Shown here one piece after another: positions 1,696 through 56,845 of a stretch of 64,000 nucleotides of DNA. The notes beneath the pieces are model-generated. The model made no database searches. It had not been told where the DNA came from and worked only from the letters and a program-made list of their open reading frames with translations. Origin of the DNA: Deltaproteobacteria bacterium (lineage in GTDB: Bacteria > UBA10199 > DSSB01 > JACPFA01); NCBI GenBank assembly GCA_016183235.1, contig JACPFA010000021.1:33596-97595 (forward strand), in the 5' to 3' direction. Made by a program: the position numbers and the translations under genes. Positions within the stretch are counted from its first letter, which is position 1. Each line of letters begins with the position of its first letter.

Positions 1696-1873
1696 GGGCA
1701 TCTCTAAAAACTATGTTCGTTACGAAAAATCACAATCTGAGCCGAGACAAGGAAGATGAGCAAAAAGCCCGGAGACGTAGCCACAGCGCTACGTTGAGGA
1801 CTTTTTGTGAAATCTGACGCAGTTGCAGGCCAGAGTGTGATTTTGCAGTAGAAGATAGTTTTTAGAGGTGCCC
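1696..1873. repeat. Nested palindromic element, family D (copy 1)
   Basis: Outer 19-nt inverted repeat GGGCATCTCTAAAAACTAT / ATAGTTTTTAGAGGTGCCC (1 mismatch). It encloses a 93-nt core (1739-1831) that recurs at 45577-45667. Confidence 0.7.
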
Positions 1874-1894
1874 TGAAGGGAATAAAAATATCTT

Positions 1895-3139
1895 ATGCTC
1901 AAGTTAACTCATCTTGAACTTGATACCCTCATGGTGCAAATGGGCTTGCTGCTATTGGCCGCCCGCCTCTTGGGCGAGGTTGCCCGTCGTTTCAAACAAC
2001 CCGTGGTGGTGGGGGAAATCTTGGCCGGGGTATTGTTAGGGCCTACAATTTTGGGGGCCATCAGCCCTGAATTTTTTTATAAAATTTTCCCCCTATCGGG
2101 TAGCACAGCATTAACCCTCAACGCCATTGCCTCGCTTTCTGCTGTGATGCTGCTTTTTATTGCGGGGATCGAAGTCGAACTTGAGATGGTGTGGCAAGAA
2201 GGCCGCAAGGCTTTGTTTACCAGCTTTGGCGGGGTGATTGTTCCTTTTGTTGTGGGTTTTGGGATTGCATGGTTTCTGCCTAATCTTTTTGAATATTATG
2301 AAAGCTACGATCGTTTTCTCATGCCCTTGTTTTTGGGAACGGCCTTGTCGATCAGTGCATTACCCGTGATTGCTAAAACTTTGATGGATTTGGATATTTT
2401 TAAAACCCGATTGGGTAATTTAATTATTGCCAGTGCCATGGCCGATGATCTGTTTGGCTGGATGATGTTTTCACTGATTATTGCTCGCATGGGTGCTGGC
2501 CCTGGGATCAATTTGCTCATGACACTTTTTTTAACGCTACTTTTTACCTTCGGCATGCTTACGCTGGGCAGAATCTTGTTAGACAGGTCTTTAACGTTGG
2601 TCAAAAAACATTTTGTTTGGCCCGGTGGTGTGGTTGCCTTTGCCTTGTCATTGTGTTTTCTGGGGGCGGCTTTTACCGAATTTATTGGGATTCACGCCAT
2701 TTTTGGCGCCTTTATTGTAGGGGTGGCTTTAGGTGATTCAAGGCATCTTTCCATGCAAGCCAGAGAAATTATTTATCAGTTTGTCAACAATGTGTTCGCC
2801 CCACTTTTTTTTGCTACCATTGGATTAAAGGTCAATTTTGTTGAAAATTTTAATTTGCTACTAACACTCATTGTGGTTTTTGCCTCCTATTTTGGGAAAT
2901 TGGTGGGTTGTGGGTTAATTTCTTATTGGTCGGGGTTTCAATGGCGAGAGGCCATGGCCATTGGCTTTGGCATGAATGCCCGTGGCGCCATGGTTATCAT
3001 CTTGGGATTATTAGCTTTGGAACATGAACTGATTCAAACCAATCTTTTTGTCTCTTTGGTCATCATGGCCTTGGTTACCAGCATCACCAGTGGCCCTTTG
3101 ATGAAGTATTTTTTAAAACCCACTCCGGCCACACGTTGA
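1895..3139 (+). CDS. Cation:proton antiporter (CPA2/Kef-type)
   Basis: 414 aa, polytopic. N-terminal LLGEVARRFKQPVVVGEILAGVLLGPTILG is the typical CPA2 Na+(K+)/H+ exchanger signature. Confidence 0.8.
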   Translation: MLKLTHLELDTLMVQMGLLLLAARLLGEVARRFKQPVVVGEILAGVLLGPTILGAISPEFFYKIFPLSGSTALTLNAIASLSAVMLLFIAGIEVELEMVWQEGRKALFTSFGGVIVPFVVGFGIAWFLPNLFEYYESYDRFLMPLFLGTALSISALPVIAKTLMDLDIFKTRLGNLIIASAMADDLFGWMMFSLIIARMGAGPGINLLMTLFLTLLFTFGMLTLGRILLDRSLTLVKKHFVWPGGVVAFALSLCFLGAAFTEFIGIHAIFGAFIVGVALGDSRHLSMQAREIIYQFVNNVFAPLFFATIGLKVNFVENFNLLLTLIVVFASYFGKLVGCGLISYWSGFQWREAMAIGFGMNARGAMVIILGLLALEHELIQTNLFVSLVIMALVTSITSGPLMKYFLKPTPATR

Positions 3140-3172
3140 CAAAAGGGTTTTTCTTAAGTAGGGCAGCGAACA

Positions 3173-3454
3173 ATGGGAAAAGCGCGTCAAAAATTAATTC
3201 TTTTTTTATTAGGGTTTTTCCTATCGCAGGGGATGGTGCAAGTGCTTCATGCCCATGCCTTGGGGGCTGGTAAATTAGCGGGGACTTGTGACACTTGCAT
3301 CCTTTTACAACCAACGAGTTTTGCCGAGGCTCATGATCCTTCTCTTAATATAGGTTCGTATCAAACCGATTTTTTATTTATTTATTCTAACCCCCTTCCA
3401 TTGGGTTTTTTTTGTGATCTACAGTTTTCAAGAGCCCCTCCCATTTTAAAATAA
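3173..3454 (+). CDS. Small membrane-anchored His/Cys-containing hypothetical protein
   Basis: 93-aa ORF with an N-terminal hydrophobic helix followed by HAHALGAGKLAGTCDTC. Lies upstream of the metal-uptake cluster. Weak RBS and no recognisable family. Confidence 0.3.
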   Translation: MGKARQKLILFLLGFFLSQGMVQVLHAHALGAGKLAGTCDTCILLQPTSFAEAHDPSLNIGSYQTDFLFIYSNPLPLGFFCDLQFSRAPPILK

Positions 3455-3462
3455 TGTCATAG

Positions 3463-3568
3463 ATGGATCCTCAGGTCTTAGCCCGGGATGACGTCATATA
3501 TATAGATCCTAGGTTTTAGTCCGGCATGATGGCGCTATGTCATCCCGGGCTAAGACCTGAGGATCCAT
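3463..3568. repeat. Palindromic element, family C (30-nt perfect inverted repeat)
   Basis: ATGGATCCTCAGGTCTTAGCCCGGGATGAC (3463-3492) has its exact reverse complement at 3539-3568, with a 46-nt spacer. Related copies lie at 41224, 44900, 54304 and 55311. Confidence 0.8.
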
Positions 3569-55285: not shown

Positions 55286-55310
55286 CAATGTTGGGTTAAG
55301 AATGAAATGA

Positions 55311-55375
55311 ATGGATCCCGGGTCTAGCCCGGGATGACGTAATGCCGTCATGCCGGACATTGATCCGACACCCAT
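55311..55375. repeat. Palindromic element, family C
   Basis: ATGGATCCCGGGTCTAGCCCGGGATGACGTAATGCCGTCATGCCGGACATTGATCCGACACCCAT. Confidence 0.7.
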
Positions 55376-55390
55376 ATATGACATACAACT

Positions 55391-56713
55391 GTGAATTATT
55401 TATTAAAACAATTGATGGAATACGGAACTACCGAGTACCAACAATACCAGCCGGGGTTGGGGCGGATGCGGGAGATGTTGAAGCGGTTGGGGTATCCGAA
55501 GCGGGGTATCGAATTTATTTTAGTGGGGGGGACCAATGGCAAGGGGTCGGTGGCGCGGATTTTACATGGGTTGTTGTGGGCACAGGGGCTGCAGGTTGGG
55601 CTTTATACTTCGCCGCATTTGGTGCGATTTAATGAACGCATCGTGGTGGGTAATCGGGAAGTCACGAATGCAACACTTGAAAAAGTGCTGAGATATTTTC
55701 AGAAAAAAAAGATTACAGGCAGGCCCACTTTTTTTGAACTTACCACCTTGCTTGCTTTGGAGGTGTTTCGGCGGGCTAGGGTTAAAATTGCTATTTTAGA
55801 AGTGGGGTTGGGGGGGCGGTTTGATGCCACCAATGTTGTGGACCCCGGCTTGTCGGTTTTGGTGAGTGTGGGGCATGATCATCAAGAAATTTTGGGCCGT
55901 GGGTTGGAGAAGATTGCTTTGGAGAAGATTGGGATATTTCGGCCAGGGAAGCTAGCCCTTGTTGGTAAGGTGCCAGGTCATGTTAAGCGGCTCATTCAAG
56001 ATAAAGCTAAGCAGAGTAAATTATGCTTTCTACCTAAAATAGAAAGTAACTTTTTAGAATCGGGCAGAGACTCTCTCAACCCCAGCAAAGGGGTTTCGAG
56101 TAGCCTCTTCCCGCTTCTAAAAAGTTACTTTCCAAATAGTCACATTCAAAGGCATAATTTAGCCTTAGCATTGAGGGCGCTGTGGTTTTGGCAAAGAGGG
56201 AAATATTTTCCTGCGCAGAATATTCTAGAAGAAGCTTTGCGGCGGATTGAATTGCCGGGGCGGATGGAGGTGCGGGGGAATATTGTCTTGGATGGGGCGC
56301 ATAATTTAGAGGCGGCTCAGGCGCTGGTAAAATTTTTAAAAAAGCTGTCATTGCGACCCCGGACTTTGATCCGGGGGAAGCAATCTCAAACGGAGAGATT
56401 GCTTCGTCACAAAGCTCCTCGCAATGACAAGTACATTTTTTTGGTTGGGATGGCGACGAGTAAAGATCGAAAAAAGTTTATCAATGTCATTAGGCCATTG
56501 GCCAAGAAAATTATTTTTACGGAATTTTTGCACCCACGAGCGGTGAAGCTGGAAACATGGCGAAGGGAATTTAAAATTCGTGGAGCTGAATATTTTAGGC
56601 ATCCAAAATCCGCGTATCAGCGCTTATTAAATTGCCGCGGCAAAAATATTGGCGTGGTGACGGGGTCGTTTTATTTGGTGGGGATCTTAAGGAGCCGTAC
56701 CGAAATAAGATGA
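55391..56713 (+). CDS. folC: Dihydrofolate synthase/folylpolyglutamate synthase carrying two in-frame repeat insertions
   Basis: Mur-ligase P-loop GGTNGKGS, LEVGLGGRFDATN, DGAHN and GSFYLVG. Two segments (56042-56132 and 56346-56429) are copies of intergenic hairpin repeats read through in frame. Confidence 0.85.
   Translation: MNYLLKQLMEYGTTEYQQYQPGLGRMREMLKRLGYPKRGIEFILVGGTNGKGSVARILHGLLWAQGLQVGLYTSPHLVRFNERIVVGNREVTNATLEKVLRYFQKKKITGRPTFFELTTLLALEVFRRARVKIAILEVGLGGRFDATNVVDPGLSVLVSVGHDHQEILGRGLEKIALEKIGIFRPGKLALVGKVPGHVKRLIQDKAKQSKLCFLPKIESNFLESGRDSLNPSKGVSSSLFPLLKSYFPNSHIQRHNLALALRALWFWQRGKYFPAQNILEEALRRIELPGRMEVRGNIVLDGAHNLEAAQALVKFLKKLSLRPRTLIRGKQSQTERLLRHKAPRNDKYIFLVGMATSKDRKKFINVIRPLAKKIIFTEFLHPRAVKLETWRREFKIRGAEYFRHPKSAYQRLLNCRGKNIGVVTGSFYLVGILRSRTEIR
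56042..56132. repeat. Family-H-core hairpin inside the folC coding sequence
   Basis: 18-nt arms GAAAGTAACTTTTTAGAA / TTCTAAAAAGTTACTTTC. The centre CGGGCAGAGACTCTCTCAACCCCAGCAAAGGGGTTTCGAGTAGCCTCTTCCCGC is homologous to 41838-41892. Confidence 0.65.
56346..56429. repeat. Family-A hairpin inside the folC coding sequence (84 nt = 28 codons)
   Basis: TGTCATTGCGACCCCGG...GAAGCAATCTC-AAACG-GAGAGATTGCTTC...CTCCTCGCAATGACA is translated as SLRPRTLIRGKQSQTERLLRHKAPRNDK, between DGAHN..LKKL and YIFLVGMATSKD. Confidence 0.8.
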
Positions 56714-56716
56714 ACA

Positions 56717-56845
56717 TTTTAGCATCTCATCTTGGGGTCATCTTTGCCCGATCTTCAATCGCAAAATCCTCAAGCTAGCTTTTGCTAGCCCTCCGGTTTT
56801 GCTCATTCAGATCGGCCAAATCTGACCCCAATCTGAGTGCTAAAA
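56717..56845. repeat. Long imperfect palindrome between convergent folC and vapC
   Basis: TTTTAGCATCTCATCTTGGGGTCA pairs with TGACCCCAATCTGAGTGCTAAAA. There are inner imperfect arms and a central GCTAGC-TTTT-GCTAGC. It may act as a bidirectional terminator. Confidence 0.55.

Follow-up and report, generated by a model that had tools for sequence, protein, structure and literature searches.

Why do hairpin repeats of several seemingly unrelated families, crowded into the gaps between genes of one bacterial locus, share GTCAT/ATGAC termini, and could one recognition or cleavage activity stand behind them? The question was raised by an initial annotation of a 64,000-nucleotide stretch (hereafter the window; positions 33,596 to 97,595 of contig JACPFA010000021.1, assembly GCA_016183235.1) from the metagenome-assembled genome (MAG) of a 'Deltaproteobacteria bacterium', which had listed repeat families A, B, C, D and H and several large composite palindromes. 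Our analysis, made from sequence, indicates that families A, B and C are very probably repetitive extragenic palindromes (REPs) with a CGTC or TGTC tag, of the class of dRS3, the Neisseria Transformation Sequence (NTS) and the Ssn-related motif (SRM), and at the same time the DNA sites of a GIY-YIG single-strand nuclease of the Ssn family, whose gene (ssn) lies in the window between two inverted family B modules. For these three families the earlier interpretation of a single activity is supported as essentially right, and the published work on Ssn matches it; families D and H and the large composites have no GTCAT ends and are different elements.

CGTC/TGTC-tagged palindromic repeats were defined as a superfamily by Di Nocera, De Gregorio and Rocco in 2013 (BMC Genomics, PMC3733652). 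Their tag is often TGTC, the first two pairs of their stems are A-T and T-A, and the tail fits CCA; the four published families, listed from five phyla, have stems of 8-9 bp and loops of 4-5 nt. Inverted dimers predominate, heterodimers are common, one genome may carry several families, dimers can be nested in longer palindromes, and intragenic dimers correspond to 20-30 amino acids. Neisseria dRS3 and Rickettsia palindromic elements RPE-4 and RPE-6 are members, and no dedicated transposase or enzyme was identified for them (PMC3733652). Chenal et al. (2025, Nat Commun, PMC11893778) described the NTS, CGTCATTCCCGCGMAVGCGGGAATCYRG, which extends the classical dRS3, and generalised it to the degenerate SRM. 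The 94-aa GIY-YIG protein SsnA of N. meningitidis bound the hairpin only as single-stranded DNA, did not bind its RNA form, and cut a few nucleotides upstream; cleavage was governed mainly by the three bases 5' of the palindrome, the 3' C was most critical for binding, and replacement or extension of the loop was tolerated. In Neisseria, transforming DNA that enters the cell is cut by this system, with less recombination in the vicinity of the repeats, and ssn genes, with homologues in the thousands, are typically flanked by their own motifs (PMC11893778).

All the copies listed in the initial annotation were recovered in the window. Two close relatives were used for comparison: L086/L087 (JGI 3300025308, ENA ERZ27254745), syntenic with window positions 52.8-56.7 kb at 86% nucleotide identity, and L088 (JGI 3300025308), syntenic with 39.7-46.8 kb in aligned blocks 86-93% identical. 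The elements of families A, B and C are given below, with the strand where one was assigned and the evidence in brackets.

3463-3568: family C composite, one module present twice, inverted, tags inward, with a 46-nt spacer, forming a 106-nt hairpin (repeat map, fold)
19823-19895: family B dimer, tags outward (SRM pattern, module search, fold)
21914-21984: family B dimer, tags outward (SRM pattern, module search, fold)
24578-24691: family A dimer nested in the long palindrome 24491-24882 (module search, fold)
28531-28609: family A heterodimer in the cusB-cusA spacer (module search, fold)
31440-31523: family A dimer with divergent genes on either side (module search, fold)
41026-41107: family A heterodimer nested in the palindrome 40936-41193 (module search, fold)
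41220-41262, plus strand: single family C module, CATTAC-GTCAT..ATCCAT-GT-ATGACAG (SRM pattern, module search, comparison with L088)
42850-42899, plus strand: family B module with extended branched loop, 3' of ssn in the sense of the gene, tag outward (repeat map, module search, fold)
43249-43298, minus strand: family B module, 5' of ssn in the sense of the gene, inverted partner of 42850-42899 (repeat map, module search)
44900-44956: family C doublet, tags inward (ATGAC-GTCAT), missing in L088 (SRM pattern, module search, fold, comparison)
47386-47460: family A dimer between divergent purM and histidine kinase genes, with Logan contigs ending inside it (module search, fold)
52535-52566, plus strand: single family A module (module search)
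54304-54369: family C doublet adjoining the family A module at 54372 on its head side, missing in L086 and L087 (comparison, fold)
54372-54404, plus strand: degenerate single family A module with head TTCATTGTG, the head being intact in L086 as TGTCATTGCGAGG (comparison)
55311-55385: family C doublet, of which the left module (within 55295-55340) is missing in L086, where only the right module is present (SRM pattern, comparison, fold)
56346-56429: family A dimer of 84 nt (28 codons), in frame in the folC-like open reading frame (ORF) 55391-56713 (ORF, homologue alignment, module search, fold)

The three families share one frame, in which a (T/C)GTC tag precedes a palindrome AT-stem...stem'-AT that is followed directly by C, the whole module measuring 24-55 nt. 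We searched the window for GTCAT plus 3 nt followed by the reverse complement and C within a span of <=60 nt, with 200 dinucleotide-preserving shuffles as background. The results showed 26 matches compared with 1.46 +/- 1.2 in the shuffles, a 17-fold excess; about 24 of the 26 are genuine, and those at 738 and 38018 are probably due to chance. GTC was the search anchor and the AT...AT frame was imposed, while the base before GTC and position +8 were left free: the former was T in 19 and C in 5 of the 24 modules and never A or G, and the latter was C in 24/24. The AT...AT closing pairs were found as well in repeat families detected de novo (D13-D15) and in 348 modules adjacent to ssn genes of other genomes. 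Single-stranded DNA folding returned hairpins for all elements, with z-scores of -2.4 to -11 against shuffled controls (ViennaRNA with DNA parameters was used for sequences >150 nt).

Inside this frame the families differ. Family B has an 8-bp stem, ATTCCCGC, a 4-nt loop (GAAA, GGAG or GAAG) and the tail CCAG; family C has an 8-bp stem, ATCCCGGG, a 5-nt loop (CTAGA or CTTGA) and the tail CCAT. Both fit the published dimensions of stem, loop and tail, from which only the B variant flanking ssn departs in stem (8-9 bp) and loop (4-5 nt). Family A, the commonest in the window, reads GTC-ATTGC-GA-[inner hairpin or irregular segment]-G(A/T)(A/G)-GCAAT-C: a 5-bp outer stem ATTGC encloses an internal bulge and a second hairpin, with 14-41 nt between the arms, and the tail is CTC, CCC or CTT, so that only its first C is retained together with the tag and the AT closing pairs. 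Stem, branched interior and tail set family A apart from the four families on record. The published SRM pattern, HGTCWYN(0-2)YYVSBRHN(0-5)WNVSBRGN(0-2)RNCYNB, gave 5 matches in the window against 0.11 expected (about 45-fold), all of them B or C modules; no family A module in the window matched it. Except at its first base, the module at 19823-19850 agrees with the NTS consensus of 28 nt, and GTC and the 3' C, the bases with the greatest reported weight, are kept across A, B and C.

The modules are arranged as nine dimers with tags outward, four doublets with tags inward and three singles (41226, 52536 and 54372). As had been described for families A and B, the termini TGTCAT...ATGACA were found in 9/9 outward dimers. 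Dimers of family A join modules with differing interiors, and family C occurs mostly as inward doublets, ATGAC-GTCAT, some with an 8-nt spacer G[C/T]AATGCC. Unpaired tag, A-T/T-A stem start, C-initial tail, inverted dimers and heterodimers, several families side by side, nesting and intragenic dimers are all features of the published CGTC superfamily; the host of the window, an uncultured groundwater 'Deltaproteobacteria' MAG, lies outside the five listed phyla. Two minor observations concern neighbouring letters: the 6-nt CATTAC before C modules resembles the family A head, and AGAAAGTGCATTTTTCAAC follows ATGAC at both 21984 and 43299.

Modules were located in gaps of all three orientations (divergent, convergent and co-directional), the cusB-cusA spacer among them, in agreement with the placement between genes and inside operons reported earlier. 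The description of the repeats as intergenic does not hold for the elements at 56042-56132 and 56346-56429, which lie inside the folC-like ORF, and the statement that almost every gap longer than 100 bp has a hairpin was too strong: GTCAT modules were present in 12 of the 25 gaps >=100 bp and in 2 shorter gaps, and some hairpin repeat of whatever family in about 17 of the 25 by our own tally. Short-read contigs from four independent runs were 100% identical to the window and ended within repeats, as expected if many copies exist elsewhere in the genome, and their ends point to such copies. A search of Rfam at gathering and E-value thresholds returned only tRNA and spurious miRNA-like matches on long hairpins, so the repeats do not belong to a known RNA family. 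TwoAYGGAY RNA was considered for ATGGAT and rejected, as nothing matched. An apparent strand bias of single modules (3/3 on the plus strand in the window) was dropped because L088 has its single module on the opposite strand.

The family B pair reported near 42851 and 43247 was confirmed, and between its two members we found a gene that had been overlooked.

42929-43216, minus strand: ssn gene for a single-domain GIY-YIG nuclease of 95 aa, MBI2336060.1 (Pfam PF01541, E = 1.1e-17)

The predicted protein is identical to NCBI MBI2336060.1, a 'GIY-YIG nuclease family protein' of a 'Deltaproteobacteria bacterium' MAG (locus tag of a neighbour, HYU97_04850). PF01541 covers residues 3-77, and no other domain was found in the 95 aa. 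Residues Y7, Y18, G20, R28, H32, E65 and N84 were invariant in 23 homologues, catalytic-type positions included; with an assumed offset of one residue, Y7, Y18 and E65 would be the Y6, Y17 and E64 mutated in SsnA. A search of PDB sequences gave only weak matches to GIY-YIG proteins of UPF0213 type (E = 0.13-0.2), and the protein family comprised 5,445 representative clusters at E <= 1e-10. The flanking modules 42850-42899 and 43249-43298 belong to 60-nt arms that are 93% complementary and separated by 329 nt. The ssn gene within inverted family B modules thus has the published layout, NTS-ssnA-NTS or SRM-ssn-SRM. A paralogue, MBI2336894.1, is 86% identical to the window protein and probably comes from the same MAG, judged by neighbouring accession numbers alone; a small set of paralogues, instead of a single enzyme, may thus stand behind the 'one activity'.

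Two further observations concern ssn cassettes in databases. Ssn homologues are often annotated with N-terminal extensions of 30-60 aa, which are probably the product of gene callers reading through the upstream hairpin module. In another MAG (L089, 1980-2570), an ssn cassette is nested in an outer palindrome with 31-bp arms, and part of this outer flank, TTCTTTCGTAAA..AGGAGAACAAAA, recurs beside the window cassette at 43300-43363; the L089 outer palindrome raises the possibility that the mobile unit may be larger than SRM-ssn-SRM.

To place the window cassette among its relatives, we scanned one genome per species with the window protein and found at least 461 relatives, of which the best 80 (56-80% identity) were kept. 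These 80 loci come from Pseudomonadota, Cyanobacteria, Nitrospirota, Ignavibacteriota, Patescibacteria, Acidobacteriota, Planctomycetota and others. In 59 of them, GTCA[TC] lies <=160 nt upstream and [GA]TGAC <=160 nt downstream of the gene; the typical locus reads GTCAT-hairpin-ATCCAG ... gene ... CTGGAT-hairpin-ATGAC, and the flanks in the window have the same orientation. Strict SRMs were present in 36/80 loci (67 in 446 kb), and modules of the general frame in 77/80 (348 in total, 0.78 per kb). Homologues in Devosiaceae, Rickettsiales and Bradyrhizobium carry SRM flanks, and these are lineages in which SRM or CGTC repeats are on record (PMC3733652, PMC11893778). Closer homologues (82-91% identical) had unrelated gene neighbourhoods and the same flanks, as expected of a mobile cassette. 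Modules of type A, with an ATTGC stem and a long branched loop, were found near ssn genes in Patescibacteria, Acidobacteriota and others (L009, L029, L032), and L065 has one at about 70 nt upstream of ssn. Modules that flank ssn, the window pair included, frequently have long branched loops.

Many of these loci carry a further pattern, which we call head stutters: 1-6 tandem partial copies directly upstream of a complete module, each combining TGTCAT with the initial 4-8 nt of the left stem and some 10 nt that vary, with a period of 18-23 nt. They were seen in 31/82 ssn loci (L003, L004, L012, L026, L045, L051, L056, L090 and others), in 60 runs compared with about 10 in shuffles; within the window none was found. 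They may be the footprint of a process that acts at the tag.

The comparison of copy positions between relatives showed differences in presence and absence. L086/L087 lack the family C doublet region 54298-54373, one family C module (55295-55340) and 56339-56407, the greater part of the family A dimer that interrupts the folC-like gene in frame. L088 lacks 44887-44953 (family C doublet), 45533-45709 (family D) and a 706-nt region, 42658-43363, that holds ssn; in place of the latter it has a 47-nt spacer with one different module, GTCATTCTGAAGCCAGCAGGCTGAAGAATC. At 41220-41262, where the window has a single C module, L088 has a family A dimer (L088rc 1539-1650), and the outer boundaries TTTCTG...ATGACAG are common to both.

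The folC-like gene gives the clearest direction of change. The orthologue (72% identity in BLASTP, 79% in the alignment) lacks the 84-nt dimer, as do 8 more distant homologues (0/9 with the dimer), which shows a gain with the reading frame kept. An in-frame palindromic repeat in a housekeeping gene recalls the Rickettsia palindromic elements (RPE); the window offers one clearly derived case, RPE-1 is a longer, unrelated palindrome, and RPE-4 and RPE-6 are themselves CGTC elements (PMC3733652). This Mur-ligase gene (55391-56713) carries two in-frame palindromic elements, the dimer, whose peptide is SLRPRTLIRGKQSQTERLLRHKAPRND, and a family H element that is also present in the closest relative; its ORF stays open at 440 aa, compared with 397 aa in the relative.

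The site at 54298 holds an intact family A head, GATG-TCATTGCGAGG, in the relative; the window has the doublet at precisely this spot, beside a head reduced to TTCATTGTG, and a gain is arguably indicated. The extra module at 55295 is about 8 nt or less from the GTC tag of a module common to the two genomes. In two of the three family C gains, the extra DNA thus abuts the 5' side of a resident GTC tag at a distance of 0-8 nt, and the junction sits at the expected Ssn cut site, which is suggestive for two events only. For family B sites, a protein search with the Na/Ala symporter found no close relative (best 60%). Based on the dimer in the folC-like gene and the differences among close relatives, we conclude that the repeats have been mobile recently. 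Such gain and loss and an in-frame insertion are absent from PMC11893778, and the predicted system of the window resembles that of NTS and SsnA in its five SRM modules and its 95-aa GIY-YIG gene between inverted modules.

We propose the following scheme. A module exposed in single strand, as in the lagging-strand template or in incoming transforming or conjugative DNA, would fold into its hairpin, and Ssn would read the unpaired GTC tag, the A-T/T-A closing pairs and the C directly 3' of the palindrome. Stem interior and loop would be free to vary, which would account for seemingly unrelated families sharing their termini. Ssn would then nick a few nt 5' of the tag. Modules and dimers would derive from the ssn cassette as non-autonomous elements, similar to miniature transposable elements with inverted repeats (MITEs), and could invade intergenic DNA, other palindromes and, now and then and in frame, genes, with new copies landing preferentially beside the tag of a resident module, the expected Ssn cut site. 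The single-strand specificity, the critical bases and the cut position are taken from the literature; the repeat structure, its excess over chance, the ssn gene with its flanks, the architecture across phyla and the differences in presence and absence were obtained here. That one Ssn of the window acts on all three families, that Ssn drives the spread of the repeats and that it has any role in limiting the recombination of incoming DNA, we infer.

Several points weigh against this scheme. Family A, although the commonest, fails the SRM pattern, has a 5-bp stem instead of 8-9 bp and ends in CTC or CCC instead of CCA; among the 348 modules near ssn genes, an ATTGC or ATCGC stem occurred in 7, and type A rarely flanks ssn directly. 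Altering the stem sequence of the hairpin with its structure kept abolished SsnA activity (PMC11893778), and given this sensitivity one enzyme may not serve all families. Family A is nevertheless placed in the same frame because of the type A modules near ssn in other phyla, the branched loops of ssn-flanking modules and the loop tolerance in vitro. The protein is a probable Ssn by its domain, size, SRM flanks and layout. With inverted flanks, nicks would be expected on opposite strands, an arrangement that does not by itself account for excision or copying. The pattern of insertion next to a resident tag rests on two events; gain and loss are not separable without an outgroup, save for the folC case and arguably 54298; and neither a consistent target-site duplication (at four filled/empty sites of A or C) nor a defined junction was found at insertions of A, B and C.

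Other explanations of the same elements were weighed with these points in mind. Many elements lie downstream of genes or in convergent and co-directional gaps, where they might be host regulatory structures, terminators or stabilisers of mRNA 3' ends, kept by selection at the RNA level and in need of neither a dedicated protein nor mobility; REPs elsewhere have been proposed to stabilise mRNA and to terminate transcription (PMC3733652), and a secondary role of this kind is possible. As the whole explanation it is improbable. The hairpins of A, B and C are not followed by a T-run (the following sequences are, for example, AGCCAACC, AGAAAGCC and AGAGTCTTTAAC), elements also occur between divergent genes and inside an ORF, and symmetric dimers look alike on both strands; the presence of copies varies between genomes 86-92% identical, and neither the Rfam search nor the failure of SsnA to bind the RNA form (PMC11893778) fits a function in RNA.

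The remaining two alternatives accept mobility and assign it to a transposase, and against both stands the finding that no transposase domain was detected among the window ORFs >=100 aa. In one of them the repeats would be REPs and REP doublets forming hairpins (REPINs), mobilised by a REP-associated tyrosine transposase (RAYT; IS200/IS605-like) encoded elsewhere in the genome, with the GIY-YIG gene a passenger or a coincidence. The likeness is real: short tagged palindromes, mosaic clusters as in bacterial interspersed mosaic elements (BIMEs), a cognate gene with its own repeats on both sides, hairpins recognised in single-stranded DNA, and inverted doublets that fold as one long hairpin, which is the REPIN architecture. 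The view is moreover limited to 64 kb of the genome, and PMC3733652 left it open that CGTC elements might borrow other transposases. The tag, however, is (T/C)GTC and not the GTAG of RAYT-associated repeats, whose enzyme is an HUH tyrosine transposase; no RAYT is found in the window, the gene flanked by modules is GIY-YIG both here and in 59/80 loci, and a tyrosine transposase gene flanked by CGTC repeats was found in no species (PMC3733652). We regard this explanation as quite improbable. Still less credit, close to none, is given to the idea that A, B and C are classical MITEs of a DDE-type insertion sequence, with GTCAT/ATGAC as the terminal repeat bound by its transposase. They are short elements with inverted termini, as the TGTCAT...ATGACA of all nine outward dimers illustrates, and family D of the same window does seem to behave in this way, with long inverted arms and a probable TA duplication. 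No DDE transposase was found in the window, however, the four filled/empty sites of A or C show no consistent target-site duplication, singles and inward doublets lack the geometry of terminal inverted repeats, and what is conserved is a hairpin bearing an unpaired tag instead of a terminal repeat.

Within the preferred explanation, CGTC-tagged repeats recognised by Ssn, it is possible, although we consider it rather doubtful, that Ssn is itself the engine of spread, nicking 5' of a resident GTC tag, with a new module or dimer copied in at the nick. If true, this would explain the tag-to-tag pile-up (ATGAC-GTCAT), the nesting in hairpins and the upstream partial heads in many phyla; the lineage would provide the first natural evidence for the movement of CGTC-tagged REPs, a question left from 2013, and family A would show an enzyme tolerating a 5-bp stem with a branched interior.

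The repeat class has been known since 2013 and the enzyme since 2025, and the main result here is one of classification, by which a hitherto unexplained pattern can be read as a predicted system of protein and DNA whose gene has a name. The locus shows this system in an uncultured groundwater 'Deltaproteobacteria' MAG with three module families and probably two ssn paralogues, and it records recent gain or loss of modules, of a doublet at a resident tag and of the ssn cassette region, as well as an in-frame insertion in a folC-like gene. Family A was missed by the published pattern, and current counts of SRMs are therefore probably underestimates. The filled and empty sites offer material for testing Ssn nicks as entry points.

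The elements outside the GTCAT system were mapped as follows.

1695-1865: second copy of family D, with a 95-nt core 88% identical and different palindromic outer arms (repeat comparison, fold)
24491-25106: two long nested palindromes without GTCAT ends, 24491-24882, which encloses a family A dimer, and 24892-25106 (repeat map, fold)
40936-41193: long palindrome without GTCAT ends, enclosing a family A dimer (repeat map, fold, comparison)
41801-41928: family H, 128-nt near-perfect palindrome (repeat map, fold, comparison)
45533-45711: family D, 177-nt MITE-like foldback with 57-nt inverted arms 82% complementary, missing in L088 (repeat map, comparison)
52582-52785: long palindrome without GTCAT ends, whose core 52632-52728 is homologous to 24958-25043 (repeat map, fold)
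56042-56132: copy of family H inside the folC-like ORF (comparison with L086, fold)

The filled site of family D reads CTTTTAT-TA-[TTAACCG...CGGTTAA]-TA-GTATTCC and the empty site in L088 CTTTTAT-TA-ATATTCC; this single case is consistent with a TA target duplication, which is linked to IS630/Tc1 elements. In the 90 fetched loci, families D and H and the palindrome cores occur in this lineage only. Tagged hairpins interleaved with other repeat families in intergenic DNA are also known as Neisseria intergenic mosaic elements (NIMEs), but the RS and Correia elements of Neisseria have no relation to the partner repeats of the window (D, H and the long palindromes).

Family H and the long palindromes have conserved cores and arms that vary from copy to copy and are yet nearly perfectly self-complementary. 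Palindrome 24892-25106 encloses an AT-rich core, 24958-25043, and the loop GATGACAG noted earlier in its innermost part (about 24984-25017) does not fit the module frame. Comparison with L088 showed that the 42-nt arms of 40936-41193 differ at 10 positions, 10/10 compensated in the opposite arm. In 56042-56132, the 55-nt H core is 100% identical to that of L086 in a region otherwise 86% identical, and its 18-nt outer arms differ at 7 positions, 7/7 compensated. Overall, the differences in arms were paired and compensatory in 17/17 cases, and one-arm-only changes numbered 0. The palindromic symmetry appears to be actively maintained, which could reflect templated correction from arm to arm or repeated nesting of cores at palindrome centres; an arm-to-arm copying process, and not selection, could be behind the compensated arms. 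The H copy at 41801 has the same core as L088rc 2193-2270, with 25 nt more per arm in the window; direct repeats of CGAA bound these extra 25-nt stretches, each of which is the exact reverse complement of the other, and the change of length is thus symmetric in both arms. A motif, AGGTGCGG(T/G)GATTTG, stands directly after two large composite palindromes (25106-25120 and 52812-52826), and the orthologous site of L086 has a variant, AGGTGCAATGATTTG, after its palindrome.

Other features of the window lie apart from these repeats. Three tandem genes for sigma-54 activators (324, 476 and 454 aa) occupy 48768-52523, downstream of a gene for a PAS histidine kinase, and they account for the direct-repeat families D1, D8 and D16. 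A block of about 1.4 kb is duplicated at 13386-14793 and 15831-17246 with 76-95% identity, and includes two paralogous genes without a Pfam match and terminator-like hairpins. Hairpins of the form AAAAATATGACGAAGGAA...TTCCTTCGTCATATTTTT at 11557, 11799 and 15690 are flanked by A-runs and T-runs and look like ordinary bidirectional terminators, not SRMs. An ORF of 1,852 aa at 58306-63864 is a compositional outlier, with 51-56% G+C compared with about 44% for the window, and its sole Pfam match is a weak one to an acyltransferase. Finally, four genes for PIN-domain toxins lie within the 64 kb (159-530, 15176-15556, 56870-57265 and 57566-57970), one of them paired with a Phd/YefM-like antitoxin gene at 14858-15172.

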